From Candidatus Parcubacteria bacterium (GTDB taxonomy: Bacteria > Patescibacteriota > Microgenomatia > UBA12405), in assembly GCA_023396915.1 (NCBI GenBank), contig JAEWUV010000006.1, positions 21,129 through 85,128 of the forward strand: a stretch of 64,000 nucleotides of DNA. Direction: 5' to 3'. The position numbers and the translations under genes were made by a program. Positions within the stretch are counted from its first letter, which is position 1. The number at the start of each line of letters is the position of its first letter. The notes beneath the pieces are model-generated. The model saw only the letters and a list, made by a program, of their open reading frames with translations, searched no databases and was not told the origin of the DNA. Positions 2,501-54,972 of this stretch are shown here, in pieces.

Positions 2501-3610
<1,110 letters not shown>

Positions 3611-3615
3611 CTAAA

Positions 3616-4722
3616 TTAACGTACCTTTAGGGTATTTGACTCAAAAACTATATCTAGTGGTTTGATAATAACTTTTTTAGGTCCGGTAGTAATTTGGCCG
3701 GCGATAACCGATTTAAAACCAGATTCTGAAATTATTTTTTGAGCAAATTCGGTTTGATCTTTTGGCAAGAACAAAGCATAACCGACTCCCATATTAAAAT
3801 TGGCGTACATTTCGGTATTACTAATATTGCCTTGTTTTTGAATAAAATCGAAGACTGGTTGGGGTGGAAGTATATTTTCGATAGTATAAATAAAGTCTTT
3901 GTTGGCTCGCATAAGTTTACGCCACCCGTGACCGGTAATATTGGAAATGTAGTGGATATCAATATTTTGGTCTAATAAATTAGCAATAACTTTGGCGTAA
4001 ATATGGGTTGGGGCTAAAAGAGCTTCTCCATAGGTAGAACCGTTGGGAAGTTTGGCGGCATAACCATCAGGGTGATTTTCGGCAATGGATCGGGCCAAAG
4101 ATAAACCGTTGGCATGAATGCCGCTGCTTTCGATAAAAATAATAGAGTCGCCGTCTTGGAGTTTGTTTTGAGTAATCAGTTTTTCTTTTGGTTTAATAAT
4201 TCCAATGGCTGAACCGGCTAAATCAATGGTTTCAGGGTTGATAACACCCCTTAAGGTTGGGGTTTCGCCCCCACCATAAACAGCACCAGACATATCGCAG
4301 GCATTTTTCCAACCAATAATCAGGTCTTTAAATCGGGTTTCGTCAGATAACCAGTCAGAACTGCCAATACCAAAATAGGCATTGACCACCATAGGTTTGG
4401 CTCCGACGGTAACTAGATCGTTTACAATCATAGCCACAGTGTCTTGGGCAATTTGGTCATAATGGGTTTTGCCGGTAAATTTGCGGGTGGCGTCGGCAAC
4501 TAAATTTTTGGTACCTAAGCCTTCAATTACTAGTGCTTTATAACAATCGCCTTCGTCCCAAACATAGGCAGATTCTCCCCTGCTTTCGGTAACTTCTGAC
4601 ATATTTAGTTTTGATAAATTTTGTGCAGTATTAGCGGCTTGAGTTTGAGCAAAAACCTTGACTGGGTCCATTTTTGAATAATCAACTCCTGAAGAAGCGT
4701 AGTTGGAATTTTGTTTTGTCAT
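3616..4722 (-). CDS. purM: phosphoribosylformylglycinamidine cyclo-ligase (AIR synthase)
   Basis: Aligns along its length to E. coli PurM from memory: EGLGTKNLVAD, VAMIVNDLVTVGAKP, GGGETPTLRG, HANGLSLAR, LLAPTHIY, NITGHG, EMYANFNMGVG. Confidence 0.8.
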   Translation of the reverse strand: MTKQNSNYASSGVDYSKMDPVKVFAQTQAANTAQNLSKLNMSEVTESRGESAYVWDEGDCYKALVIEGLGTKNLVADATRKFTGKTHYDQIAQDTVAMIVNDLVTVGAKPMVVNAYFGIGSSDWLSDETRFKDLIIGWKNACDMSGAVYGGGETPTLRGVINPETIDLAGSAIGIIKPKEKLITQNKLQDGDSIIFIESSGIHANGLSLARSIAENHPDGYAAKLPNGSTYGEALLAPTHIYAKVIANLLDQNIDIHYISNITGHGWRKLMRANKDFIYTIENILPPQPVFDFIQKQGNISNTEMYANFNMGVGYALFLPKDQTEFAQKIISESGFKSVIAGQITTGPKKVIIKPLDIVFESNTLKVR

Positions 4723-4779
4723 AGCTTATTATAAATGATTAATTTTGTTATAAAAATTGTTATAATATGGACACATTTA

Positions 4780-4864
4780 GCCGCAGTGGTGAAACTGGTA
4801 TACACGCAAGACTTAAAATCTTGTGCTCTCAACAAGCGTGTGGGTTCGATTCCCGCCTGCGGCA
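4780..4864 (+). tRNA. tRNA-Leu(TAA), long variable arm
   Basis: Acceptor stem GCCGCAG/CTGCGGC. Anticodon arm caaga-CTTAAAA-tcttg. T-loop GGTTCGATTCC. Immediately followed by CC and then the next tRNA. Confidence 0.8.
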
Positions 4865-4865
4865 C

Positions 4866-4939
4866 CGGGGATTGGCGCAATTGGCTAGCGTGCGTGCTTT
4901 GGGAGCATGAGGTTGCAGGTTCGAATCCTGTATCCCCGA
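4866..4939 (+). tRNA. tRNA-Pro(TGG)
   Basis: Acceptor stem CGGGGAT/ATCCCCG. Anticodon loop tTTGGGa. T-arm GCAGGTTCGAATCCTGT. Starts 1 nt after the tRNA-Leu discriminator. Confidence 0.7.
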
Positions 4940-5012
4940 CTTCGTTCCGATAAATCGGAACTTCGTCGAGGCAAGGCCCGACTGTTTTGGTAAAATAAGT
5001 TACATTAAAAAT

Positions 5013-5083
5013 GCGGGTATAGTTTAGTGGTAGAACGAAAGATTTCCAATCTCTCGGCAGGGGTTCGATTCCCCTTACCCGCT
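5013..5083 (+). tRNA. tRNA-Gly(TCC)
   Basis: Very similar to E. coli glyT as recalled (GCGGG..TAGTT.A.TGGTAGAACGA.AG.TTCCAA...GGTTCGATTCCC..CCCGCTCCA). Confidence 0.8.
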
Positions 5084-8472: not shown

Positions 8473-8527
8473 GAGATTAGTAATTTTACTATAGAATTGG
8501 GTTTAAATGGTAGAATAGTGTAATTTT

Positions 8528-8609
8528 GCCAGGGTGTTGAAATTGGTATACAAGCATCGCTCAGAACGGTGTGTCGCAAGACGTATGGGTTCAAGTCCCA
8601 TCCCTGGCA
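8528..8609 (+). tRNA. tRNA-Leu(CAG), long variable arm
   Basis: Acceptor stem GCCAGGG/CCCTGGC. Anticodon arm catcg-CTCAGAA-cggtg. T-loop GGTTCAAGTCC. Confidence 0.75.
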
Positions 8610-8655
8610 CTAGGGTAGTGAAAAATGGATAGTATTTAGTATAATAAGGACACTG

Positions 8656-8728
8656 GCCGAAGTAGCCAAGATGGTCACGGCACTGGTCTGAAAAACCTGG
8701 GATGTCAGTTCGAGTCTGACCTTCGGCA
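8656..8728 (+). tRNA. tRNA-Phe(GAA)
   Basis: Acceptor stem GCCGAAG/CTTCGGC. Anticodon loop cTGAAaa. T-arm GTCAGTTCGAGTCTGAC. Confidence 0.6.
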
Positions 8729-8732
8729 CAGT

Positions 8733-8805
8733 GCGGGAATAGCTCAATTGGTGGAGCGTCTCCTTGCCAAGGAGAAGGTCGCGGGTTCGAGTCCCGTTTC
8801 CCGCT
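8733..8805 (+). tRNA. tRNA-Gly(GCC)
   Basis: Acceptor stem GCGGGAA/TTCCCGC. Anticodon arm tctcc-TTGCCAA-ggaga. T-loop GGTTCGAGTCC. Confidence 0.8.
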
Positions 8806-8816
8806 CATTTTTTTTG

Positions 8817-8889
8817 GGCCGTTTAGCTCAGTTGGTAGAGCGCTTCGTTTACATCGAAGATGTCGGGGGTCCGAGTCCCTCAGCGGCCA
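8817..8889 (+). tRNA. tRNA-Val(TAC)
   Basis: D-arm TAGCTCAGTTGGTAGAGC. Anticodon arm cttcg-TTTACAT-cgaag. T-loop GGTCCGAGTCC. Confidence 0.8.
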
Positions 8890-8910
8890 CCCGATTACAT
8901 TAAAAAATAA

Positions 8911-8992
8911 GCCGATGTGGTGAAATTGGTATACACGTACGCTTGAGGTGCGTATGCCGCAAGGCGTGGGGGTTCAAGTCCCTCCATCGGCA
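8911..8992 (+). tRNA. tRNA-Leu(GAG), long variable arm
   Basis: Acceptor stem GCCGATG/CATCGGC. Anticodon arm tacgc-TTGAGGT-gcgta. T-loop GGTTCAAGTCC. Confidence 0.75.
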
Positions 8993-12846: not shown

Positions 12847-12917
12847 TGCCCTGTCGTCTAATGGTAGGACATCAGCCTTTGGAGCTGAGTATTGTGGTTC
12901 GAATCCATGCAGGGCAA
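12847..12917 (+). tRNA. tRNA-Gln(TTG)
   Basis: U1-A72 acceptor pair TGCCCTG/CAGGGCA. Anticodon arm cagc-CTTTGGA-gctg. T-loop GGTTCGAATCC. Confidence 0.7.
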
Positions 12918-12946
12918 CATTGTATAGGTGATATAATGCTGACTAT

Positions 12947-14668: not shown

Positions 14669-16498
14669 TTACAATCCTGATTGAACGAAATCTCCATAAG
14701 AACCTATATCTCCGATACTGGTGGCATCTTTAATTCCGATATAAATCCATTTGACAGGGATGATAGCAAATGAGTATTTATTTGATTCTATTTGACGATA
14801 ATAACCATGAGAATATATTTGTTTTAAGACTTTTGCTCCATTTTTGTAACTGGTATTTAAATTTGCTGTTATTTGTCGGCCAAATTCAGCCAGTTCTTCA
14901 ATTCCTTCACGTTTGAGTTCGGGAGATAATTTTCTCTCTTTTGGGGTTTCTGTGGTGGATTCTTGACCGGTTAGCCATTCAACAACTCTTTGTTTAGTAT
15001 GGTACATAGCTTTCACTTCTGTTTCGAGTTGTTTGTCTTCAGTAATTCCTTTTCGGACAACAAGGTCAACAGAGTGGCCGTGAACATATAACCTATCAAG
15101 TTTGAGATAACTAGCAAGGGCAATAGCATTTTGATAAATTGAATAAGCATCTGAACTTTTATATATTTTTATATAATGTGGAATTTCTCCTATTTTTTGT
15201 AATTCTGAAACTACTTCACATAATTCTTCGTGTCCAGTACCCATACTACTAAATCTCCCTTTAACGACATCTTTGAGATATGCTAATTTACTTTTGGTAT
15301 CTCCGGAAATTTCATAATGGGTTTTAACTCCAAATGATTTTAAGATATCTAATTGTTTTGTAATTTGGGGAACGATTTGTTGGTATAGCTCTGAAGGATA
15401 TTTTTGGAGATATTGAATTCCATTAATGATAATGTATTCATACTGGGAAGCTACTTGTTTTAGTTCAGCATCGGAGCAGTTAAACATAGGAGGGGTTTCG
15501 GCAGAGTTACCGTTTTGATCGAAATACTTAGTAGTGAAAATAATTCTATCTGTAATATCTTTTGATTCTATTATTTGACCATTAAACTCAATTTTTGTTT
15601 TAGCTGGTATTTTGATAGGATAATTTTTTCTGATTGGATGACTTGGGTTAACACTTTCATTATCAGTAATTAAGTGAACTTCCATACCTTTTTCTGAAAA
15701 ATGAAGGAATTTAACTGGTCTTTTGTAGGCACTGGCTTGGTCTGGAGAATTATATTCGGTATAAACTGTACAATTTTCTTCTCCAATGCCGGTTAGAAAG
15801 TCGGTTGATTGAGCTGAGGCCCCTCCAACTTTATTAAAATATTTTGGAAAAGTTGTTTCTACCCAATCAGCTAATTTTTTATCCGAAATGGAGGCTCGAC
15901 TTACACGATATTTAAATGTTCTTAGAATAAAACCAATTACTTGGGCTTTAGTTTTAGCCTCTGTGGAAACATTTGTTGAATCTTCAGGTTCATCTAAAAA
16001 TGTTTGAATTTCTTGTATGACTTGTTCTTTGGATGTTCCTGGTTCGTTGCTGGCATCTTCAATTGCTAAATTAATTGTTTCTTGAGAAAACTGACGGACA
16101 CAATCAACACAAGAATAAAAAGCGGTTAAAATTTTTTTGTGGGTTGGAGGTAAATCTTGGCTTTCGGTAAATAATTTGCCCATGTTTTCTATCATTCTAG
16201 CGAAGATGTGCGGTTGAGTAATTCCGGCTGTTTTTTTATCGACCAAAGCACTAGTATCTAAAAGTTCTTGAATAGATTGTGGTGATGGGAATCTTCCTCC
16301 TTGGTTTTTAAGAGCATCGGAGATTTTTTTATAAGTTTCTGGTCTAGCATCGAAGTGATTTGAATCATTCCCCAGAGTTTGTCCGTCAAGTTGAATACTA
16401 ACAGATGGCAATAATTCTAGCGATTGTCGTAGTTGGAGGACTTGAGATCTATTAATTTCACCTGTGATGAAATTGGTTTCTAACATTTCAGCAGGCAT
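14669..16498 (-). CDS. large uncharacterised protein whose C-terminal half resembles ADP-dependent sugar kinases (ADP-PFK/GK family)
   Basis: The C-terminal half (HYEISGD...SSMGTGHEEL...HGHSVDLVV...IGDIGSYGDF) resembles ADP-dependent kinase family motifs as recalled. The N-terminal ~300 aa have no recognisable domain. Weak, memory-based call. Confidence 0.3.
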   Translation of the reverse strand: MPAEMLETNFITGEINRSQVLQLRQSLELLPSVSIQLDGQTLGNDSNHFDARPETYKKISDALKNQGGRFPSPQSIQELLDTSALVDKKTAGITQPHIFARMIENMGKLFTESQDLPPTHKKILTAFYSCVDCVRQFSQETINLAIEDASNEPGTSKEQVIQEIQTFLDEPEDSTNVSTEAKTKAQVIGFILRTFKYRVSRASISDKKLADWVETTFPKYFNKVGGASAQSTDFLTGIGEENCTVYTEYNSPDQASAYKRPVKFLHFSEKGMEVHLITDNESVNPSHPIRKNYPIKIPAKTKIEFNGQIIESKDITDRIIFTTKYFDQNGNSAETPPMFNCSDAELKQVASQYEYIIINGIQYLQKYPSELYQQIVPQITKQLDILKSFGVKTHYEISGDTKSKLAYLKDVVKGRFSSMGTGHEELCEVVSELQKIGEIPHYIKIYKSSDAYSIYQNAIALASYLKLDRLYVHGHSVDLVVRKGITEDKQLETEVKAMYHTKQRVVEWLTGQESTTETPKERKLSPELKREGIEELAEFGRQITANLNTSYKNGAKVLKQIYSHGYYRQIESNKYSFAIIPVKWIYIGIKDATSIGDIGSYGDFVQSGL

Positions 16499-16560: not shown

Positions 16561-17055
16561 TTATCTTCTTGTAAAAAAGTGACTTAATATTTGTCTAATT
16601 TTAGATGATTGGTTTTGACTAATAATACGGAATGGTCCTGTATATTCAGTGATGTTTGTAAGTAAATTATCTGTTTGAACAATAATTAACTTAGTTTTAT
16701 TAAAATTAAATATATGAAAACAATATGATTTTTCTGTTGTTTTACTGCCTTCAAAAGCTTGTATAAGATTAGATTCTTCTATCGGTGGAGGGAGTTCTTC
16801 TATATTGTCGTCGGTAATTTTAATTACTGCATTTTTTTGGATTTGTTGGATTAATGTGTTTTCATCAGTTGTGTCATTGTGTTTTAGTGTAGATGTTATT
16901 AGTGGGTTTATATATATTTCTAGGTGGTCATTATATATGGCGCAAACACCTCCGTTAGTAATATAATTTGTTGCTTCGTTTGGTGTTAAAACAATATGTC
17001 CAGGAATATAATTTATTTGGTTTTCTGGTTGGGGATTGTCCTTAATAATTTCCAT
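16561..17055 (-). CDS. hypothetical protein (164 aa)
   Basis: Intact ORF with codon usage like its neighbours. No recognisable motifs. Confidence 0.4.
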   Translation of the reverse strand: MEIIKDNPQPENQINYIPGHIVLTPNEATNYITNGGVCAIYNDHLEIYINPLITSTLKHNDTTDENTLIQQIQKNAVIKITDDNIEELPPPIEESNLIQAFEGSKTTEKSYCFHIFNFNKTKLIIVQTDNLLTNITEYTGPFRIISQNQSSKIRQILSHFFTRR

Positions 17056-17233
17056 AAAAATGGCGAAATTCGTATTCGCTGGAGTATAACATATATATAA
17101 AATTTGGTTTTTTAGTGTTTTTGGGATGTGAAAAACGGTATTGGTAGTGTTTGATATACATTTCCTTAGTTTTATCCCCTACTATAATTTTTTGAAAAAA
17201 ATATACTGGTAAATACATTAGAAATAAATAATG

Positions 17234-17320
17234 AATTGGGTGTAATTCCCAAACTGTGCCGCAACGGTTAAAGTCCGATCTTATTTATTTTATTAGTTAG
17301 TCCGAGCCAGACTGTCTTTT
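17234..17320 (+). promoter_or_regulatory. cobalamin (B12) riboswitch-like aptamer in the nrdD 5' leader
   Basis: 17238-17278 GGGTGTAATTCCCAAACTGTGCCGCAACGGTTAAAGTCCGA matches the conserved cobalamin riboswitch core (GGTG.AAT.CC....CTG.CCGCAAC.GT.AA). 17299-17316 AGTCCGAGCCAGACTGTC is B12-box-like. Confidence 0.55.
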
Positions 17321-17336
17321 TGATTAATTTTTTAAG

Positions 17337-17360
17337 CCTGGTCAAGACCAGGTTTTTTTA
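17337..17360 (+). terminator. intrinsic terminator / riboswitch expression platform upstream of nrdD
   Basis: Hairpin CCTGGT-CAAG-ACCAGG followed by T7, ending 12 nt before the nrdD ATG. Confidence 0.6.
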
Positions 17361-17371
17361 TTAATAAAATT

Positions 17372-19708
17372 ATGTTCAAAAAAATAAAAAAAAGAGATGG
17401 AAGAGTGGTTAAATTTGATTCGAGTAAAATTAAATTGGCAATTCAAAAAGCAGGTAGGGTTACCGGTGAATTTGATGAGAGAATAGCTTTGAAATTGAGC
17501 GTAAAAGTATTAGATTTAGCTGAGGAAAAAATTACAAATAAAATCCCAAAAGTTGAAGAATTGCAGGATGTTGTGGAAGAGGTGTTGTTGGATTCGAAAT
17601 ATAAAAAAACAGCTAAAGAATATATTACCTATAGACAAGAAAGAACACAAATTAGGGAAGCTAAGGCAAATTTGATGCAGGTTTATAAAACAATTGCTTT
17701 GGCTCAGGCAGAAGAAGACAGTGATGTAAAACGGGGTAATGCTAATGTTGATGGCGATACGGCGATGGGAAAAATGTTACAATTTGGAGCTGAAGGAAGT
17801 AAAGAATTTGCCAAAAAATTTTTGATGAAACCAGAACATGCAGTGGCGCACGATAATGGGGATATTCATATTCATGATTTGGATTTTTGGGCCACAGGGA
17901 CGTTGACTTGTTGTCAATCTGACCCGTTAGTTTTATTTGAAAAAGGATTTAATACTGGTCATGGTTTTTTAAGAACACCAAATTCTATTGGTAGTTATGC
18001 GGCATTGGCGGCAATATTGTTACAAGCGAATCAAAATGAACAACATGGGGGGCAGTCTATTCCAAATTTTGATTATGCTATGGCGCCGGGGGTGTTGAAG
18101 ACTTTTAGAAAAAGTTTAGTGAGTAACATTTTAAAATCAATTGATTTTATTTTTAGTAAAAGTATTGAGAAACAAGTGATAAAACAAATTGTTGTTGAGA
18201 TTGAAGAAAAAAATAAATTAACTTTCCCAGAATTGTCCAAGGATTTTTTGAAAAGTTTAAAAAGTTTAGTAAAGAAAAAAATAAAAGAAGATTTAACGTT
18301 TAAACAATTAAATAAGATTGTTGAACTTTCGGTTAAAGATACTGAAGAACAAACAAATCAAGCGATGGAGGGATTGATTCACAACTTGAATACCATGCAT
18401 TCTCGGGCTGGAGCTCAGGTGCCATTTACTTCAATTAACTTTGGGACAGATACTACAGCTGAAGGGCGATTGGTTTCAAAAGCTTTTTTAAAGGCGACTA
18501 TGAATGGGTTAGGAAAAGGAGAAACGCCAATTTTCCCTATCTCAATTTTTAAAGTGAAAGAAGGAATAAATTATAATCCGACGGATCCTAATTATGATCT
18601 ATTTAAGCAATCAATGGAAGTTTCGAGTAAAAGATTGTTTCCTAATTTTGTGTTTGTGGACGCACCATTTAATTTAAAATATTACAAACCAGGTGATTAT
18701 CGAACAGAAATTGCCACCATGGGGTGTAGAACTCGGGTGTTTGGATCGGTATTTCCTGAAAGTGATGGAATTGCCACTAGGAGAGGAAATTGTTCGTTTA
18801 CGACAATAAATTTGCCTAGAATTGGGATAAAACATGGAGTTGATTGGGATGGGTTTTATAAAGAATTAGATGAAAAGATGGATTTAGTGGCTAACCAATT
18901 ATTGGAGAGATTTGAGTTTCAAGGTGAAAGGCGAGTAAGAAATTTTCCATTTTTGATGGGGCAAGGAAATTGGATGGGAAGTGAAAAATTAGGTCCTGAC
19001 GACAAATTAAAAGATGTAATTAAACATGGAACTTTGTCGATTGGTTTTATTGGTTTGGCAGAAACTTTAGTGGCAATGACCGGAAAACATCACGGAGAAT
19101 CGGTTGAGTCCCAAAAAAATGGTTTGGAAATAATTGGATTTATGAGAAAAAAATGTGATGAATTGATGAAGAGATATAATTTGAATTTTAGTTTGTTAGC
19201 AACTCCGGCCGAAGGTTTGTCAGGACGATTTACAAAAATGGATAAAAAAGAATTTGGGGTGATTAAGGGAGTAACTGATCGGGAATTCTATACTAACTCT
19301 TTTCATGTGCCGGTCTACTTCCCTCTTGGAGCTTTTGAAAAAATTGAAATTGAAGCGCCGTATCATGATTTGTGTAATGCTGGACATATTACTTATGTGG
19401 AGTTAGACGGTAATTTGAGTAATAATATTGATGCTTTTGAGGCGGTAGTACGAAAAATGAAAGAATCAGGAGTCGGTTATGGCAGTATTAACCACCCGGT
19501 TGATAGAGATCCGGTATGTGGTTTTAGTGGAATTATAGATGGTGATACTTGTCCGTCCTGTGGCAGAAAAGAGTTTAACAATGGAGTCGGTTTTGAAAGA
19601 TTGAGAAGAATTACCGGTTATTTGGTGGGGTCATTAGAGCGGTGGAATGATGCCAAAAAAGCTGAAGAAAAAGCCAGGGTTAAGCATTCCGTAAAATTTA
19701 AAAATTGA
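17372..19708 (+). CDS. nrdD: anaerobic ribonucleoside-triphosphate reductase (class III)
   Basis: N-terminal ATP-cone (KRDGRVVKFDSSKI). C-terminal Zn motif CPSCG. Glycyl radical motif RITGYLVGSL. Confidence 0.9.
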   Translation: MFKKIKKRDGRVVKFDSSKIKLAIQKAGRVTGEFDERIALKLSVKVLDLAEEKITNKIPKVEELQDVVEEVLLDSKYKKTAKEYITYRQERTQIREAKANLMQVYKTIALAQAEEDSDVKRGNANVDGDTAMGKMLQFGAEGSKEFAKKFLMKPEHAVAHDNGDIHIHDLDFWATGTLTCCQSDPLVLFEKGFNTGHGFLRTPNSIGSYAALAAILLQANQNEQHGGQSIPNFDYAMAPGVLKTFRKSLVSNILKSIDFIFSKSIEKQVIKQIVVEIEEKNKLTFPELSKDFLKSLKSLVKKKIKEDLTFKQLNKIVELSVKDTEEQTNQAMEGLIHNLNTMHSRAGAQVPFTSINFGTDTTAEGRLVSKAFLKATMNGLGKGETPIFPISIFKVKEGINYNPTDPNYDLFKQSMEVSSKRLFPNFVFVDAPFNLKYYKPGDYRTEIATMGCRTRVFGSVFPESDGIATRRGNCSFTTINLPRIGIKHGVDWDGFYKELDEKMDLVANQLLERFEFQGERRVRNFPFLMGQGNWMGSEKLGPDDKLKDVIKHGTLSIGFIGLAETLVAMTGKHHGESVESQKNGLEIIGFMRKKCDELMKRYNLNFSLLATPAEGLSGRFTKMDKKEFGVIKGVTDREFYTNSFHVPVYFPLGAFEKIEIEAPYHDLCNAGHITYVELDGNLSNNIDAFEAVVRKMKESGVGYGSINHPVDRDPVCGFSGIIDGDTCPSCGRKEFNNGVGFERLRRITGYLVGSLERWNDAKKAEEKARVKHSVKFKN

Positions 19709-20196
19709 TGAATCAAATTAGATTAGCTAGTGAAATTGAGACCGATAATGTGGTTAATGGTGATGGCTTGAGAGCTGTAATTTGGTGTCAGGGTTGTAGA
19801 CTTCGTTGCAAGGGGTGCCATAATCCTGAAACTTGGGATGAAAAAGGTGGAACTTTGGTGGATGTTGATGAGATTAAAGGAAAATTAAAAAAAATAAAAG
19901 GTCAAAACGGTTTGACATTTTGTGGTGGTGAACCGATGTTACAACCACTAGTTTGTAAAGAAATAAGTGAGTGGGTAAAAAAAGAATTGGGCTGGTCAGT
20001 GTGGTCGTTTACTGGATATTTATATGAAGATATAAAAAAAGAAGGTGGTGATAGATGGGAGTTTTTGAAGACTTTGGACGTTTTAATTGATGGTCCTTTT
20101 ATATTAGCTGAAAAAGATTTAAGTATTAAATTTAGAGGGTCACGAAATCAAAGATTAATAAGATTGAGTAAAGGTGAAATTTTATCTATTGAATAG
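19705..20196 (+). CDS. nrdG: anaerobic RNR activating protein
   Basis: Radical SAM motif CQGCRLRCKGCHN. Overlaps the nrdD stop by 4 nt. Confidence 0.9.
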   Translation: MMNQIRLASEIETDNVVNGDGLRAVIWCQGCRLRCKGCHNPETWDEKGGTLVDVDEIKGKLKKIKGQNGLTFCGGEPMLQPLVCKEISEWVKKELGWSVWSFTGYLYEDIKKEGGDRWEFLKTLDVLIDGPFILAEKDLSIKFRGSRNQRLIRLSKGEILSIE

Positions 20197-20211
20197 GATA
20201 TAATTAAATAT

Positions 20212-20631
20212 ATGCAATGGTATATAGCGGCGGCTTTGTCAGCAATATTTGCCGCTTTAACATCAATTTTGGCTAAAATTGGGATTAAAGATGTAAATAG
20301 TAATTTGGCTACAGCTATTAGAACTTCTTTTGTATTAATGATTACTTGGGGAATCGCTTTTTGGCAGGGTGGAGTTTCGGGGATCAGTAGTATCTCAAAA
20401 AATAGTTGGGTATTTTTAATTTTGTCGGCAGTGGCTACTGGTTTGTCTTGGGTATTTTATTTTTATGCTTTGAAAGTTGGTGAGGCCAGTAAAGTAGCAC
20501 CGATTGATAAAATGAGTTTAGTATTAACAATTTTGTTTGCGGCGTTGATTTTAGGGGAAAAGATTACTTGGGCAAAGGCGGTGGGAGCATTGTTAATGAC
20601 GGGTGGAGTCTTGATAATTGCGTTGTTTTAA
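20212..20631 (+). CDS. EamA/DMT-like small membrane transporter
   Basis: Four predicted TM helices with an EamA-like pattern (ILAKIGIK..., GEKITWAKAVGALLMTGGVLIIALF). Confidence 0.55.
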   Translation: MQWYIAAALSAIFAALTSILAKIGIKDVNSNLATAIRTSFVLMITWGIAFWQGGVSGISSISKNSWVFLILSAVATGLSWVFYFYALKVGEASKVAPIDKMSLVLTILFAALILGEKITWAKAVGALLMTGGVLIIALF

Positions 20632-29538: not shown

Positions 29539-29612
29539 GGCTCCGTCGTCTAGTGGCCTAGGACTCCTGGCTTTCATCCAGGCAATCGAGGGTTCGACTC
29601 CCTCCGGAGTCA
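29539..29612 (+). tRNA. tRNA-Glu(TTC)
   Basis: D-arm TCGTCTAGTGGCCTAGGAC, as in E. coli tRNA-Glu. Anticodon arm cctgg-CTTTCAT-ccagg. T-loop GGTTCGACTCC. Confidence 0.8.
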
Positions 29613-32582: not shown

Positions 32583-32655
32583 TGGGTCCAGCGGGACTCG
32601 AACCCGCGACCAATTGCTTAAAAGGCAACTGCTCTACCGACTGAGCTATAGACCC
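32583..32655 (-). tRNA. tRNA-Lys(TTT), CCA encoded
   Basis: Reverse complement GGGTCTATAGCTCAGTCGGTAGAGCA...gttgc-CTTTTAA-gcaat...GGTTCGAGTCC...TGGACCCACCA. Confidence 0.8.
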
Positions 32656-38068: not shown

Positions 38069-39112
38069 TTAACCTGATTGATTATAGCATTTATAAGCGG
38101 TTTCAAGTTCGTTTTCTCCTAATCTATTTTTGGGTTCTATGTAGCAAAGTTTTAAGAAATTATAAAGTTTTTTTTCATTAGTAAAATTATAAATTTTTCC
38201 TGTTTTTAGGTTTTTTATTCCATATTCTGAGACTGAATAACCTAAAGAAAGGGCATGTTTTCGAAGTAAGATATTGTGTTGGCGTGAACCGGTAAAATGT
38301 TGTAAAAGCGAGGCAAAATTTTTGGCCGGTTGGACCATAATATCAACCCTAATATCTGGATAAATTTTAATGGAAGCTTTTTTGGCCCCACGATCAATAG
38401 TTTGAATATTTTCAGGATATTGAATGAAATAATCCAAAATTTTTGCAGAATTTTTTGATTTAGCGGCTAGGTCAATATCCCCTATCGTAAGTGAATGTCG
38501 ACGTAAACTGCCGAGGGCGTAAATTTCAATTTTGGGAAATTTTTCATGAAGATATTTAATGATTTTGTCAGATTTAATTTTGGCTTCTTGATAATACATG
38601 CGGCGACTTTGACCTAAAAAGGCTAGTGTATTTTCTAGTATTGAGGCTTCGGATTTAATTCCAAAATGGGGCCAATTTCTAATTTTGCCTTGCCGACAAT
38701 ATTGGATTAACTGGTCCAATGCTTTGAGTGGATTTTTAGAAAATTTTAGTTTTTTGGTAAGAATATAAGCAGTTTTGGGGCCGATACTATTGATTTTGGT
38801 AAAAATGAAAACCAAAGGAGAGATACCTTTGAAGGCACGGATAACATGAGGGTGAAGTTTGCCGGTGGTAAAAAGATAAGTAATTTTGGTAAAAATGTTG
38901 GGACCAATGCCGGGAATATTATCAAATAATTGTGGGTCTTTTTGCCAAAGATGATAGACAGATTTGGGATAAGTCAGAATGGTTTCAGCAGCGTCTTGAT
39001 AGGATTTAATTCGGAAGAAATTTTTCTTTTTGATTTCGTAGGCAGTAGCAATATTTTGGAGTATCTCGGCAATTTGTTGGTTAGAGTAATCTTTTTTAGT
39101 TTTACTCATCAC
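38069..39112 (-). CDS. DNA polymerase beta-like (family X) nucleotidyltransferase
   Basis: HhH motif IPGIGPNI. NT_POLXc catalytic motif GSLRRHSLTIGDIDL. No PHP domain. Confidence 0.65.
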   Translation of the reverse strand: MMSKTKKDYSNQQIAEILQNIATAYEIKKKNFFRIKSYQDAAETILTYPKSVYHLWQKDPQLFDNIPGIGPNIFTKITYLFTTGKLHPHVIRAFKGISPLVFIFTKINSIGPKTAYILTKKLKFSKNPLKALDQLIQYCRQGKIRNWPHFGIKSEASILENTLAFLGQSRRMYYQEAKIKSDKIIKYLHEKFPKIEIYALGSLRRHSLTIGDIDLAAKSKNSAKILDYFIQYPENIQTIDRGAKKASIKIYPDIRVDIMVQPAKNFASLLQHFTGSRQHNILLRKHALSLGYSVSEYGIKNLKTGKIYNFTNEKKLYNFLKLCYIEPKNRLGENELETAYKCYNQSG

Positions 39113-39150
39113 TTGATTATATAAGATTTGGCGGCATATAATAGGTTCTC

Positions 39151-39885
39151 ATGTTTAAAGAAGGGTCTCCATCACATTCTTTGAATATTAATAAAGAAAA
39201 AAGTTTTAATTGGGACAGGGCTTTGGAGGCAGCAAAGTTTTTTGAACGCGACATTGATGTAGAGGATGTAGTTCCTAGATATGTTACTAATTGGGAGATT
39301 TTGGCTTCTTTTGTAAATTTGGCAATAGACTTAAAAGGAAAAGAATTTAAATACAACACTATAGTTTCTGATGATGGGGGTGGTCGAGTTATATCGATTT
39401 TTATAAAATATCTTTTTAGTATTAAGCGTATGGAGATTGAAAATAATGCTCCTAGTCCAATGGTTTATTTTGTTTCTCCACATAAACCGGATTTAGTGAA
39501 TAGTTTTGTTGATAATATTCATGATTCATTGGGAAAAGTCTTGGTGGTTACGGAATTAATTAGAAATGGGAAAGGGACGAGAGTTTTTGGTGATGCCTTG
39601 AAAAGATATAACGATGTAAGTTTTGATGTGGCCTCGGTTTCTAGTGTGAAGCCTGGAGTACCAGAACAACTAGAGTCTGAATATAACACTAAGGTGTTTG
39701 TAGGTGAGAGTCTAGGTTGGGGAGCGGGAGAGGTTTTTCATAAACAACCGTTTAATGCGGTTGGTGGTGTCCTTATAGAAGGGAAACCACATTTAAAAAA
39801 AAGAGATGATTTTGATTCCCCAGTTGTGGCTGCTGCTCGGAAGAATATTTTTACTTTAGCTGAGGAAATTTCGAAGTTAATTTAG
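39151..39885 (+). CDS. hypothetical protein, possibly phosphoribosyltransferase-like
   Basis: Weak PRTase-like motif VLVVTELIRNGKGT (hydrophobic run + acidic + G.T). Otherwise uncharacterised. Adjacent to the purine genes. Confidence 0.3.
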   Translation: MFKEGSPSHSLNINKEKSFNWDRALEAAKFFERDIDVEDVVPRYVTNWEILASFVNLAIDLKGKEFKYNTIVSDDGGGRVISIFIKYLFSIKRMEIENNAPSPMVYFVSPHKPDLVNSFVDNIHDSLGKVLVVTELIRNGKGTRVFGDALKRYNDVSFDVASVSSVKPGVPEQLESEYNTKVFVGESLGWGAGEVFHKQPFNAVGGVLIEGKPHLKKRDDFDSPVVAAARKNIFTLAEEISKLI

Positions 39886-40997
39886 GTAGTGATTTGGTCT
39901 AGACAATTATTTTTAACAGCTGATTTGATTTCCATAGCGACACGAGTACCGACACTTAAATGTTTTCCATAAAGATAGAAGTTGTAAGGAGTGGCAAAAA
40001 GTCCGGGTGATCCGGGCATTCTAGGTGAAACATCAATAACAACAATATCTTTTTGTGGAGGTCCGGGGACGATAATTGATTGAAGAGCAAAAGGACCAAT
40101 TACTCCGGGTGAATAAAGATCCTGACAGGCTTTGACAAAGCTTTCGCCTAAAATAAAAGCTTTTTCGAGCATTGATTCCAATACCGTGACAGCAATGTGG
40201 CCGGCTTCTTCATATTTAATTTCCATTTTTTTAAGAACTTCAGTTTGATAACTGACGGGAATACGAGAAAGACCTTCGAGATTGGTTTGGCGACGGGTAT
40301 CAGTGCCCATAAGCTCTAATCTTTTGCTAGTCGGTGAATAGAAATAATTAAAATTGGTATGAACTCCAGTGACAAATTCTTCGATTACAGATTTTTGTAA
40401 TTGTTCTTCGGTAAAGGCGCCTTGTTGAAGTAATTTATCAGTTTGATTTTTAAAATCTTGATAAGAATCGACCATAAAGAAAGCTCTTTCAAAACCACGG
40501 GCTTTTTCTAGAACTTTAACTAAACAAAGTCTGTCGATGTTTTTTGGGTCGGTGAATTGAATAGGAAAACGAATGCCGGCCGATTTTAGGATATCGTATT
40601 GGTTGGGTTTGACTCCCCTCTCTTCGGATTTGAGTAAAAATTTATTACCAAACATAGGAATTTTAAAGTCATTTTCAATAGCCTTGTAGTCGAAATTTAG
40701 GTAAACTTCAAAAGATCGATGAGGGACAAAAATGGTATTTTGATCAATTAATTGTTGTTGGATTTGAGGGTTAAGTAAATCAGAAAATTTGTCTAAAATT
40801 AGACAATTATCAACACAACCAATTTTTCCGTCGGTTTTGTAATATTTAGAATAAACAGCATCACGGCCCTTTTGGGCAATAACCAGTGTTTTGAAACCGA
40901 GTTTTTTGGCACCACTACAAACATCAAGAGCACTGTGTGAACCGAGAACGGCAATAGTAATTTTTGACGGGTCGTAAGTTTTAATTATATTCTCCAT
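39882..40997 (-). CDS. purP: PurP-family ATP-grasp protein (FAICAR synthetase paralog)
   Basis: Collinear with archaeal PurP (IAVLGSHSALDVCSGAKKLGF, VPHRSFEVYL, FGNKFLLKSE, NFNYFYSP, ELMGTDTRRQTN, PFALQSII). Paralog of the adjacent gene. Confidence 0.8.
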   Translation of the reverse strand: MENIIKTYDPSKITIAVLGSHSALDVCSGAKKLGFKTLVIAQKGRDAVYSKYYKTDGKIGCVDNCLILDKFSDLLNPQIQQQLIDQNTIFVPHRSFEVYLNFDYKAIENDFKIPMFGNKFLLKSEERGVKPNQYDILKSAGIRFPIQFTDPKNIDRLCLVKVLEKARGFERAFFMVDSYQDFKNQTDKLLQQGAFTEEQLQKSVIEEFVTGVHTNFNYFYSPTSKRLELMGTDTRRQTNLEGLSRIPVSYQTEVLKKMEIKYEEAGHIAVTVLESMLEKAFILGESFVKACQDLYSPGVIGPFALQSIIVPGPPQKDIVVIDVSPRMPGSPGLFATPYNFYLYGKHLSVGTRVAMEIKSAVKNNCLDQITT

Positions 40998-40998
40998 T

Positions 40999-42012
40999 TT
41001 AGTCTAAAATTAAATTTAATTTATTGGATTTTTTGGCTAAATTAATTTCTCGGGCGATACGACGACCAGTGCTCATGGGTTGACCATAAACCAAATCGCT
41101 ATAAGGAGATCCGTTGATATGGATGTTGGTACCGGCAACAATGCGGCAAGAAATTTCGATAATATGGAATTTTAGGTCGGGAGTAATAATAGTTTCCAAA
41201 CAAAAAGGTCCGTAAATACCTTTTTTGTCAATTAATTTTTGAGAAGCGGCAACTAGGCGTTCACCCATTTCGTAAGCTTCGGGCATCATGGATTCCCGTA
41301 AAACAACAGGGGTATTCCCTACTACGGTATAACTAGGATTAATATCAAGTTCTTGTTGGTTTTTTGAAGGGATTCTACCAAGTGAATCAACGTTGGTTTC
41401 ATAACGGCGATCCATACCAAGAATTTCAACTTGTTTGGTTAAAGGAGAATAAAAATAATGGATATAAAGATTGACACCGATGACATATTGTTGAATAGTA
41501 TATTTTTTGCCTTTGGGGATATTTTTAAGTTTTTTGGCTAAATCTTTTTTAGAACTGGCATAAAAATAACCACTACCACCATCAGCTCCGTGGGTTTTGA
41601 CGATAACAGGATATTCAATTTTATTAATGTCAGAGTATTCTTTTGGAGTATTAATATTGGCTTGTTTAAGCCAAAGGGATTGTTTATCTCTGTCGGCTTC
41701 CCAATCCAGAACGGCTTTGTTGCCAAAATAAGGTAAAGACATTTCTTTGTTTTTTTCTAGACCTAAGTGAGCCACAAAGCTACCATGAGGAATGACAATA
41801 GCATTTTCTTTTCGGAGTTCTGGTTCTACTTTAGAAAAATCTGACCAGTCGGGAATGGTAATAATTTTGTCGATAAAAGGGAAACGCTTATAAAAAGAAA
41901 CTCTGTCTGGGGTAGAAACCAGAATTGTGTTGAACTTCTCGTCTTTGGCGCCCTTAAGGATTTGAAGAGCAGAATGACTAGCTAGAGTAACGATACTATA
42001 TTTTTTATTCAC
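40999..42012 (-). CDS. purP: 5-formaminoimidazole-4-carboxamide ribonucleotide (FAICAR) synthetase, archaeal type
   Basis: Strong collinear similarity to M. jannaschii PurP as recalled (IVTLASHSALQILKGAKDEKF, IPHGSFVAHLGLE, YFGNKAVLDWEADR, YPVIVK, YIHYFYSPL, ILGMDRRYETNVD, GPFCLETI). Confidence 0.85.
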   Translation of the reverse strand: MNKKYSIVTLASHSALQILKGAKDEKFNTILVSTPDRVSFYKRFPFIDKIITIPDWSDFSKVEPELRKENAIVIPHGSFVAHLGLEKNKEMSLPYFGNKAVLDWEADRDKQSLWLKQANINTPKEYSDINKIEYPVIVKTHGADGGSGYFYASSKKDLAKKLKNIPKGKKYTIQQYVIGVNLYIHYFYSPLTKQVEILGMDRRYETNVDSLGRIPSKNQQELDINPSYTVVGNTPVVLRESMMPEAYEMGERLVAASQKLIDKKGIYGPFCLETIITPDLKFHIIEISCRIVAGTNIHINGSPYSDLVYGQPMSTGRRIAREINLAKKSNKLNLILD

Positions 42013-43586: not shown

Positions 43587-43660
43587 GGGTTTGTGGTGCA
43601 GCGGTCTAGCACATCCGCCTGTCACGCGGAAGATCGTGGGTTCGAATCCCATCAGACCCG
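43587..43660 (+). tRNA. tRNA-Asp(GTC)
   Basis: Acceptor stem GGGTTTG/CAGACCC. Anticodon arm tccgc-CTGTCAC-gcgga. T-loop GGTTCGAATCC. Confidence 0.8.
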
Positions 43661-47431: not shown

Positions 47432-47502
47432 GCGGCTATAGTTTAGTGGTAAAATATGTCCTTCCCAAGGATAGGTCGAGGGTTCAATTCCCTCTAGCCG
47501 CT
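47432..47502 (+). tRNA. tRNA-Gly(CCC), CCA encoded
   Basis: Acceptor stem GCGGCTA/TAGCCGC. Anticodon arm tgtcc-TTCCCAA-ggata. T-loop GGTTCAATTCC. Followed by TCCA. Confidence 0.75.
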
Positions 47503-47513
47503 CCAGAATACGC

Positions 47514-47586
47514 GCCGGAGTAGCTCAGTTGGTAGAGCAAAGCTTTCGTAAAGCTGAGGTCGGGAGTTCGATTCTCCCCTTCGGCT
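47514..47586 (+). tRNA. tRNA-Thr(CGT)
   Basis: D-arm TAGCTCAGTTGGTAGAGC. Anticodon loop tTCGTAa, like E. coli thrW. T-loop GAGTTCGATTCTCCC. One A-G mismatch at the base of the anticodon stem. Confidence 0.65.
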
Positions 47587-54898: not shown

Positions 54899-54972
54899 TG
54901 GTTGTTAGAGGACTCGGACCTCTGACCTCTTCGATGTGAACGAAGCGCTCTAACCAACTGAGCTAAACAACC
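54899..54972 (-). tRNA. tRNA-Val(CAC), CCA encoded
   Basis: Reverse complement GGTTGTTTAGCTCAGTTGGTTAGAGCG-cttcg-TTCACAT-cgaag...GGTCCGAGTCC...AACAACCACCA. Confidence 0.8.

Follow-up and report, generated by a model that had tools for sequence, protein, structure and literature searches.

What controls the class III ribonucleotide reductase (RNR) operon nrdDG in a bacterium belonging to the candidate phyla radiation (CPR), and what kind of regulatory element, if any, lies in the leader preceding it? The class III enzyme is independent of B12 and sensitive to oxygen, NrdJ being the B12-dependent RNR. We address this question on a 64,000-nucleotide stretch of DNA (hereafter, the window) from Candidatus Parcubacteria bacterium contig JAEWUV010000006.1 (positions 21,129 to 85,128 of the forward strand; GenBank assembly GCA_023396915.1), and all coordinates given here are window positions. 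Our results indicate that the nrdDG leader is most probably a class II cobalamin riboswitch that would switch transcription off in the presence of cobalamin. This agrees in its core with a first-pass annotation of the same DNA, which had read the region as a cobalamin-responsive leader and an intrinsic terminator attenuating the class III RNR operon: a match to Rfam family RF01689, the terminator itself and a predicted pairing that excludes it all point in that direction. The target genes are the following:

17372 to 19708, plus strand: nrdD, class III anaerobic ribonucleoside-triphosphate reductase (778 amino acids)
19708 to 20196, plus strand: nrdG, activating radical-SAM enzyme (Pfam Fer4_12 and Radical_SAM; TIGR02491 at 143 bits)

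The NrdD product carries the Pfam ATP-cone, NRDD (650 bits) and Gly_radical domains and matches NCBIfam NF005497 at 1092 bits, and its homologues place the gene beside those of Candidatus Saccharibacteria and similar CPR bacteria, making the host a CPR bacterium related to Saccharibacteria. The nrdD stop codon and the nrdG ATG share the sequence TGATG, and public gene calls likewise start nrdG at this overlap.

The identity of the element was assessed by scanning the whole window on both strands (128 kilobases searched) with cmscan against 4227 Rfam families (Rfam 15) at their gathering thresholds. The scan returned 15 tRNAs and RF01689, with no other non-tRNA RNA family. The RF01689 match scores 46.1 bits for a gathering score of 36.5 (E = 5.9e-8 window-wide and 3.7e-10 in a local scan) and spans the full model (positions 1 to 81 of 81), with other families falling far under threshold locally. 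The strings quoted in the first-pass annotation lie where it had placed them, including the proposed cobalamin-riboswitch core GGGTGTAATTCCCAAACTGTGCCGCAACGGTTAAAGTCCGA at 17238-17278, and this core is contained in a covariance-model match above the gathering score; of the two models that the annotation had named, however, it is the alternative (the AdoCbl-variant model, now RF01689) that matches, with RF00174 being outscored. The aptamer resolves into the following elements:

17221 to 17291, plus strand: cobalamin riboswitch aptamer, RF01689 (AdoCbl-II, formerly AdoCbl-variant), from cmscan
17221 to 17231 (GAAAUAAAUAA) paired with 17281 to 17291 (UUAUUUAUUUU), plus strand: P1/P3 helix of 11 A-U or G-U pairs, with no J1/3 bulge
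17236 to 17252, plus strand: P4 hairpin with L4, UUGGG-UGUAAUU-CCCAA, from the Rfam alignment
17255 to 17263, plus strand: P5/L5, UGUGCCGCA, from the Rfam alignment; L5 nucleotides G17258-G17261 (GCCG) are the partners of L13
17265 to 17277, plus strand: P6, CGG-UUAAAGU-CCG, with a plain 7-nucleotide loop L6, from the Rfam alignment

Helices P4, P5 and P6 and the core strings (an L4 resembling GUGNAAUUC, CUG..CC.GCAACGGU and AGUCCGA) align with the model at posterior probabilities near 1, and the P1/P3 helix is supported both by the model alignment and by the minimum free energy (MFE) fold. The four-way P3-P6 junction characteristic of RF01689 is therefore present with its conserved core, P3 being made of A/U pairs instead; the model alignment places a 7-nucleotide deletion at the J1/3 of the family and marks two P3 pairs as non-canonical.

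Could such a match be a chance resemblance in AT-rich intergenic DNA, in which a hairpin followed by a T-run terminates nothing in particular? The local G+C content of 34% and the low-complexity A/U outer helix would lend themselves to this explanation, but the probability that we assign to it is close to nil, given an E-value of 5.9e-8 against 4227 families over 128 kilobases of searched strand. An exact search of public metagenome contigs with the 20-nucleotide core CCGCAACGGTTAAAGTCCGA furthermore retrieved 89 stretches (80 of which were covered by our analysis), and the genes downstream of this core include known members of the B12 regulon, namely nrdA, nrdB and the genes for a BtuF-like binding protein and a DUF4430 protein. 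The element is also orthologously conserved, so that the comparative data already refute the chance explanation.

Three published classes provide the reference frame for classifying the aptamer. In Cbl-I riboswitches, a P2 arm is present and P6 carries a large extension (P7-P11); in Cbl-IIa riboswitches, J1/3 is bulged, P6 ends in a loop and the ligand is hydroxocobalamin (HyCbl) or methylcobalamin (MeCbl); in Cbl-IIb riboswitches, J1/3 is short and either paired or mismatched, P6 is extended by a short hairpin and the ligand is adenosylcobalamin (AdoCbl) (PMC7367189). Membership in RF00174 (Cbl-I) can be rejected, since RF01689 wins the clan competition, P2 is absent and L6 is a 7-nucleotide loop with no P6 extension. 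The Cbl-IIa subclass fits by the P6-loop criterion alone and was likewise rejected, because the J1/3 model positions are deleted and P1-P3 is continuous. The paired J1/3 resembles Cbl-IIb, and the P6 hairpin of that subclass is absent from the window and from three orthologous loci (L085, L179 and L181) and present in three others (L178, L180 and L182). Judged by these features, the aptamer is to be regarded as class II, not IIa and half IIb, an assignment from which the sensed form of cobalamin is not readable. The first-pass description of the leader as AdoCbl-responsive is accordingly unproven, the aptamer being of class II with a plain P6 loop and no J1/3 bulge.

Every class of cobalamin riboswitch exerts its regulation through a kissing loop between L5 and L13 (PMC5028336, PMC7367189), which requires L13 to be presented on a stem-loop and to contain at least one bulged nucleotide (PMC5028336). 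A hairpin of this type follows the aptamer after a 6-nucleotide linker:

17298 to 17314, plus strand: P13/L13 regulatory hairpin, its stem formed by 17298-17302 and 17310-17314 and its loop, CGAGCCA, spanning 17303-17309

The segment at 17299-17316 (AGTCCGAGCCAGACTGTC) had been labelled as a B12-box-like part of the riboswitch. It lies outside the aptamer, and we discard that label in favor of the expression-platform hairpin P13/L13, which is identified by its conservation and by the covariation between L5 and L13. Among the 63 unique relatives with enough DNA 3′ of the aptamer, 61 have a short hairpin soon after the aptamer GTCCGA, with loop CGAGCA or, in four of them (the window and a sister included), CGAGCYA. 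The P13 stem covaries, with 13 stem types among these 61 relatives, and the nucleotide immediately 5′ of CCGCAAC in L5 covaries with position 5 of L13 (G-C in 51 cases, C-G in 8 and A-U in 1), so that the contact is Watson-Crick in 60 of 61 scored pairs, the lone exception being a mis-detected hairpin. In the window, the predicted kissing pairs are G17258-C17307, C17259-G17306, C17260-G17304 and G17261-C17303, with A17305 bulged, and the downstream stem-loop with at least one unpaired nucleotide expected for RF01689 is found at the sequence level. The predicted energy of P13 is -2.8 kcal/mol.

Downstream of P13, a terminator scan identifies a 9-base-pair (bp) stem, AAGCCUGGU-CAAG-ACCAGGUUU at 17334-17355, followed by a U-run and with a predicted energy of -11.6 kcal/mol; three terminator-like sites are found in 600 nucleotides for 0.3 expected:

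17334 to 17359, plus strand: intrinsic terminator (P14), with stem 17334-17342 paired with 17347-17355, loop CAAG and U7 running to 17359

The terminator described in the first-pass annotation (CCTGGT-CAAG-ACCAGG at 17337-17352 and T7 at 17353-17359, leaving 12 nucleotides, 17360-17371, before the ATG at 17372) is thus borne out. It is also a conserved feature: RNAalifold predicts both P13 and the terminator on the expression platforms of the seven intact riboswitches of the clade (the window copy and six orthologues described below), with three compensatory pairs, and the compensatory changes in the terminator comprise a C-G to U-A replacement in L180 and a loop-closing pair that alternates among U-A, U-G and C-G.

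For a riboswitch of this layout to respond to its ligand, formation of the terminator should compete with an alternative structure. The candidate that we put forward is the following:

17306 to 17310, plus strand: proposed antiterminator strand GCCAG (with GUC at 17300-17302), predicted to pair with CUGGU at 17338-17342 and GAC at 17346-17348

When the nascent RNA is cut before the terminator 3′ arm, its MFE structure pairs G17306-G17310 with C17338-U17342 (-6.1 kcal/mol), and with three more bases it adds the pairing of 17300-17302 with 17346-17348 (-8.8 kcal/mol). This predicted fold excludes both P13 and the terminator and overlaps the kissing-loop nucleotides; it is the nascent MFE structure in the window, L085, L179 and L182, and the MFE structure of the full platform in L181. 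Under the resulting model, bound cobalamin would stabilize the L5-L13 kissing loop and hold P13, leaving the terminator 5′ arm free to pair with its 3′ arm, so that polymerase would stop 12 nucleotides before nrdD. When cobalamin is lacking, the terminator 5′ arm and loop (CUGGU...GAC) would instead be captured by L13 together with the P13 3′ strand (GCCAG and GUC), and the antiterminated RNA would allow transcription to continue into nrdD and into nrdG, which is translationally coupled to it. The purpose of such a switch would be to shut down the class III RNR when the B12-dependent NrdJ can work.

Several observations weigh against this reading and have to be set beside it. The antiterminator comprises 5 to 8 bp, and its contiguous 5 bp, compared with 3.9 for shuffled sequences, are indistinguishable from chance; the folding energies of the nascent RNA are no better than those of shuffled sequence; and the complementarity of L13 and the P13 3′ strand to the terminator 5′ arm in 20 terminator-bearing relatives (4.55 versus 4.03 bp) is not significant. 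P13 is 8 bp long in L085 and L178 and would there resist strand invasion, and the extra C in the L13 of the window leaves a kissing loop of 4 bp and a bulge, compared with 5 bp in most relatives. To these should be added the wholly A/U composition of P1-P3, with its two pairs flagged by the model alignment, and the missing J1/3 bulge of the family. A mutually exclusive antiterminator had been one of the checks proposed along with the original interpretation, and its outcome is mixed: the flagged region does pair with the terminator 5′ arm to the exclusion of the terminator, but not above shuffled controls. Because the complementarity across relatives is non-significant and the nascent energies are no better than those of shuffles, we consider the antiterminator an inference, the best that the folding predictions offer, and not a demonstrated part.

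It is in this context that a different read-out has to be considered, in which the aptamer binds cobalamin but acts through switching of P1, through a pseudoknot between L13 and the terminator 5′ arm with P13 intact, through mRNA stability or through initiation at an A/U-rich start independently of a Shine-Dalgarno (SD) sequence. The statistical weakness of the antiterminator speaks for a read-out of this sort, as does the 8-bp P13 of L085 and L178, which favors a contact by the loop only; SD motifs precede only 5 of 55 window genes, AUUAAU repeats on both sides of the terminator pair in the MFE structure, and how transcriptional cobalamin switches work is said not to be settled, even in the case of Bacillus subtilis yvrC (PMC7367189). 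We nonetheless deem it unlikely, since the terminator is kept, with compensatory changes, in all seven intact members of the clade, no conserved alternative partner of the P1 3′ strand was seen, and the terminator 3′ arm has been lost along with the aptamer core in all four relatives with a decayed riboswitch. This joint loss indicates that the terminator is functionally tied to the aptamer, and transcriptional control through the terminator remains our preferred interpretation.

The comparative evidence comes from a clade of closely related loci. The whole leader is kept in six loci whose NrdD is 84-88% identical to that of the window (L085, L178, L179, L180, L181 and L182). RF01689 matches score 38.5-42.4 bits in L085, L179 and L181, the window copy being the highest in the clade (46.1), while L178 scores as RF00174 (31.6 for a threshold of 31.5), and neither L180 nor L182 attains a gathering score. 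L178, L180 and L182 carry a hairpin of some 30-45 nucleotides inserted in L6 (at approximate coordinates 2860-2915 in L178, 1960-2010 in L180 and 2880-2925 in L182). Since three orthologues carry this insertion, the P6 feature that divides cobalamin riboswitch subclasses is polymorphic at a single orthologous locus. Within the clade, the P4 stem is invariant and its loop variable, a U-A pair of P1 is replaced by C-G in L182 (a compensatory change), and the P1 extension varies between GAGG/CCUC and CAG/CUG among relatives. The window copy has neither the P1 extension nor a small linker hairpin, both of which are kept in the other six intact copies.

Mean pairwise identity across the seven intact leaders is 0.93-0.97 in the aptamer core, 0.85 in P13 and 0.46 in the spacer, and amounts to 0.90, 0.95 and 0.63 at the first, second and third codon positions of nrdD, respectively. 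The contrast of the core with both the spacer and the third codon position shows that the aptamer is under purifying selection, which extends to P13/L13 and the terminator.

Four further loci with NrdD at 82-84% identity contain decayed riboswitches in the homologous intergenic region (L086:5681-6003, L005:884-1206, L087:5681-6003 and L183:2670-3003). In all of them, the aptamer core (about 33 nucleotides) and the terminator 3′ arm with its T-run have been deleted, and the P13-like and CUGG segments are retained. RNAalifold recovered no common helix on these four sequences; because the MAFFT alignment had misplaced the 3′ arms, single-sequence folds were used instead. In these, a CCAG-CUGG helix that joins the P13-like segment to what was once the terminator 5′ arm is part of the MFE structure of all four relatives (11, 14, 5 and 4 bp), forming a long hairpin of 11-14 bp in L086 and L005. 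The retained helix would look like what is expected of a frozen antiterminator. One of these loci (L005, CAYUUU010000021.1) is labelled 'uncultured Gammaproteobacteria bacterium'; its NrdD is 84% identical to that of the window and its leader is a homologue of the CPR-clade leaders, so that this label probably stems from an error in binning or taxonomy.

The existence of decayed copies raises the question of whether the window leader might itself be a decaying relic devoid of regulation, with nrdDG either constitutively expressed or constitutively terminated. Besides the four loci already lacking the aptamer core and terminator 3′ arm, this scenario can draw on the loss from the window copy of the P1 extension and linker hairpin kept by the six others, on the A/U-only P1-P3 helix and on the fact that nrdJ was not found in about 72 kilobases of sequence. 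The window copy has, on the other hand, the top RF01689 score in its clade (46.1 compared with 38.5-42.4 bits), core conservation equals that of nrdD codon positions 1 and 2, the contact nucleotides of L5 and L13 are intact, and the changes observed in helices are compensatory, not random. A relic hence appears improbable, and a functional class II riboswitch remains the more sensible account of the locus.

Switching off a class III RNR in response to cobalamin is logical where a B12-dependent RNR can replace it in the presence of B12, as described for Propionibacterium acnes (PMC3848588). A further point against our interpretation is that Pfam searches found no nrdJ, btu gene, cobalamin transporter or B12-dependent enzyme in the window and the 8.4 kilobases upstream of it (about 72 kilobases of a 906,714-bp scaffold). 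A tblastn search of 180 loci and the window with NrdA and NrdJ detected NrdJ only in L158, L115 and L148; in the latter two, NrdJ fragments lie just 5′ of the riboswitch. NrdJ is common in other CPR groups, with at least 120 clusters named Woesebacteria, Levybacteria or Patescibacteria retrieved with a Woesebacteria NrdJ query, and none of the 120 clusters listed maps to the scaffold of the window. The gene set of the window is fermentative and reduced and includes pflB-focA-pflA, and the CPR host is almost certainly unable to make B12. The riboswitch would thus predict that this reduced and probably host-dependent bacterium imports B12 and has a B12-dependent RNR, presumably an nrdJ encoded elsewhere in its genome.

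The sequence upstream of the aptamer offers a plausible start for the regulated transcript:

17202 to 17207, plus strand: candidate -10 box TATACT (predicted), which would set the transcription start near 17214

The assignment of this box is an inference only, drawn from the alignment, in which AATATACTGrTAA around it is invariant in all seven riboswitch-bearing members of the clade, and from its fit to the TAYAMT boxes located 3-22 nucleotides 5′ of 15 of the 55 window start codons. A simple sigma-70 scan proposed TTGAAA-16-TACATT at 17192-17219 instead, but its start would fall within P1. The resulting nrdD leader of about 158 nucleotides is unusual for the window genome, where short or absent leaders seem to be the norm: TATAAT-like boxes lie 3-22 nucleotides before 15 of 55 start codons, compared with 3.8% of random 30-nucleotide windows, and only 5 of 55 genes have an SD-like motif. 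Examples of regions with a TATAAT-like box include 3599-3625, 4723-4750, 12920-12946, 20195-20211 and 39125-39150. These data suggest that the window genome may use leaderless mRNAs or mRNAs with very short leaders, unlike its Saccharibacteria relatives, and a terminator read-out fits a genome with scarce SD motifs and short or absent leaders better than occlusion of a ribosome-binding site (RBS).

Further upstream, a block at 17105-17165 (TAGTGTTTTT ... AAAAAC ... GTAGTG-TTTGATATAyAT) is common to all aligned clade members, riboswitch-less ones included, and may be a promoter or operator of nrdD or of the divergent gene at 16561-17055, which encodes a 164-amino-acid protein with no Pfam match. 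On the other side of the operon, nrdG is followed by an EamA-family gene (20212-20631) that has its own TATAAT 7 nucleotides 5′ of its ATG, is absent or replaced in several relatives and probably lies outside the riboswitch-controlled operon.

The regulation of nrdD in the nearest larger group takes a different form. NrdR-box-like palindromes (ACACTAnATATAGyGT) are found in 76 of 78 Saccharibacteria nrdD loci (L006-L084), and 54 loci carry at least two of them, for the most part at a spacing of 32-33 bp; the boxes lie about 40-150 nucleotides 5′ of nrdD, around a TTGACA promoter, and strong GGAGG ribosome-binding sites occur in these loci. No NrdR-box-like site with up to three mismatches was detected upstream of nrdD in any of the 11 clade loci (the window and the 10 relatives closest to it), and membership of the window nrdD in an NrdR regulon was rejected on these grounds; the clade is also devoid of the GGAGG sites of the Saccharibacteria loci. 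The operon under control is hence the same, but NrdR is a protein repressor acting on DNA and the window element is an RNA.

The aptamer subclass is also found 5′ of nrdA (L137) and nrdB-nrdA (L131), and in CPR-like contigs most of the proteins encoded behind it match neither Pfam nor NCBIfam. The largest family of such proteins spans 20 loci and 367-470 amino acids (L158:3088-4311, L105:9080-10312, L089, L099, L103, L104, L106, L114, L118, L125, L127, L145, L147, L149, L151, L159, L162 and L166-L168). It is apparently restricted to CPR, with 69 representative clusters among 1.84 billion proteins, and shows an invariant Ser/Arg/SP.G/GSCGG-type Cys motif as well as a four-cysteine knuckle at the C terminus; no signal peptide was apparent in L158 or L105, the two members read. 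A confident AlphaFold2 model (pLDDT 84) yielded no PDB match with Foldseek at E ≤ 0.001. In L158 (Candidatus Woesebacteria), the family member lies directly 3′ of nrdJ. We regard this family as a candidate for a factor that acquires B12 or for a substitute enzyme that works without it. Further, mutually unrelated Pfam-less proteins of 359-676 amino acids are encoded directly behind the aptamer in L119:928-2955, L102:937-2682, L101:1040-2680, L098:2153-3229, L111:2152-3435 (minus strand), L140:5569-6975 (minus strand), L091, L120, L129 and L161.

Elsewhere in the window, several genes have an archaeal flavor (an ADP-dependent PFK/glucokinase-like gene, two tandem PurP-like genes with DUF1246/DUF1297, and a PolX-type polymerase, at 14669-16498, 39882-40997, 40999-42012 and 38069-39112, all on the minus strand). 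The 15 tRNA genes occur in small clusters and as single genes (4780-5083, 8528-8992, 12847-12917, 29539-29612, 32583-32655, 43587-43660, 47432-47586 and 54899-54972), and an open-reading frame called at 8503-8808 (minus strand) overlies the tRNA cluster at 8528-8992 and is probably no gene.

Both the RNA class described here and the presence of cobalamin riboswitches before nrdDG are already established, and our finding leaves knowledge of riboswitch classes and of RNR regulation unchanged. What it adds is a well-supported cobalamin riboswitch in a CPR/Patescibacteria genome, the new details being that the host belongs to the CPR, that NrdR boxes have locally given way to a riboswitch and the riboswitch to a decayed one, and that P6 is polymorphic. 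A full-text literature search combining CPR, Patescibacteria or Saccharibacteria with cobalamin or B12 and with RNR or riboswitch returned no paper. The clade also constitutes a compact natural series (intact leaders, leaders with a P6 insertion, and decayed leaders with the putative antiterminator retained) for the study of the coupling between kissing loop and terminator. Taken jointly, these elements allow a more speculative reading, which we hold to be doubtful though worth stating: that control of nrdDG has been repeatedly rewired within a narrow CPR clade, from NrdR operators to a minimal class II riboswitch and on to decay with a frozen antiterminator helix in sister lineages, while orthologues toggle between a plain L6 and a P6 hairpin and L13, which normally masks the RBS, has been turned to a new use, competing for a terminator arm, in a largely SD-less lineage. 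If true, this would provide a natural example of a kissing-loop switch moving from translational to transcriptional control, and evidence that an obligate symbiont tunes deoxynucleotide (dNTP) synthesis to the B12 of its host or community.

Among known systems, the closest in structure are the AdoCbl-variant (Cbl-IIa) riboswitches such as env8HyCbl (RF01689, PDB 4FRN), with which the window element shares the P3-P6 junction, the conserved L4, the GCAACGGU...AGUCCGA core, the lack of a large P6 extension, and a P13 separated from P1 by a few nucleotides, the loop of which forms a kissing contact with L5 around a bulge (PMC5028336). It differs from Cbl-IIa in lacking the J1/3 bulge, a T-loop that contributes to the Cbl-IIa pocket, with P1-P3 forming a continuous A/U helix; in its L13, which belongs to the CGAGC(C)A class, has a single A bulged out instead of two purines and contains no ribosome-binding site; and in its read-out, which would be a separate intrinsic terminator, not RBS occlusion. 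In target and logic, the counterpart is P. acnes, where cobalamin riboswitches are found in the nrdDG and nrdAB leaders of a genome with nrdJ, premature termination having been seen for nrdAB (PMC3848588). The P. acnes nrdDG leader shows the same regulatory logic and controls the same operon, but it is annotated as a plain 'cobalamin riboswitch' and belongs to B12-making Actinobacteria, whereas the window element is a short class II form in a CPR bacterium whose nrdJ has not been located. In mechanism, the nearest parallel is B. subtilis yvrC (btuF), a transcriptional OFF switch in which P13/L13 is followed by a P14 terminator and poly-U, and for which one published ligand-free model has parts of P13 re-pairing with parts of P14 (PMC7367189). 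This layout and the P13/P14 re-pairing model match our proposal for the window, from which yvrC differs by its P2 arm, its P6 hairpin (a Cbl-I/II hybrid) and its structured P8-P9 linker, none of which is present in the window, although the six window orthologues do have a small linker hairpin.

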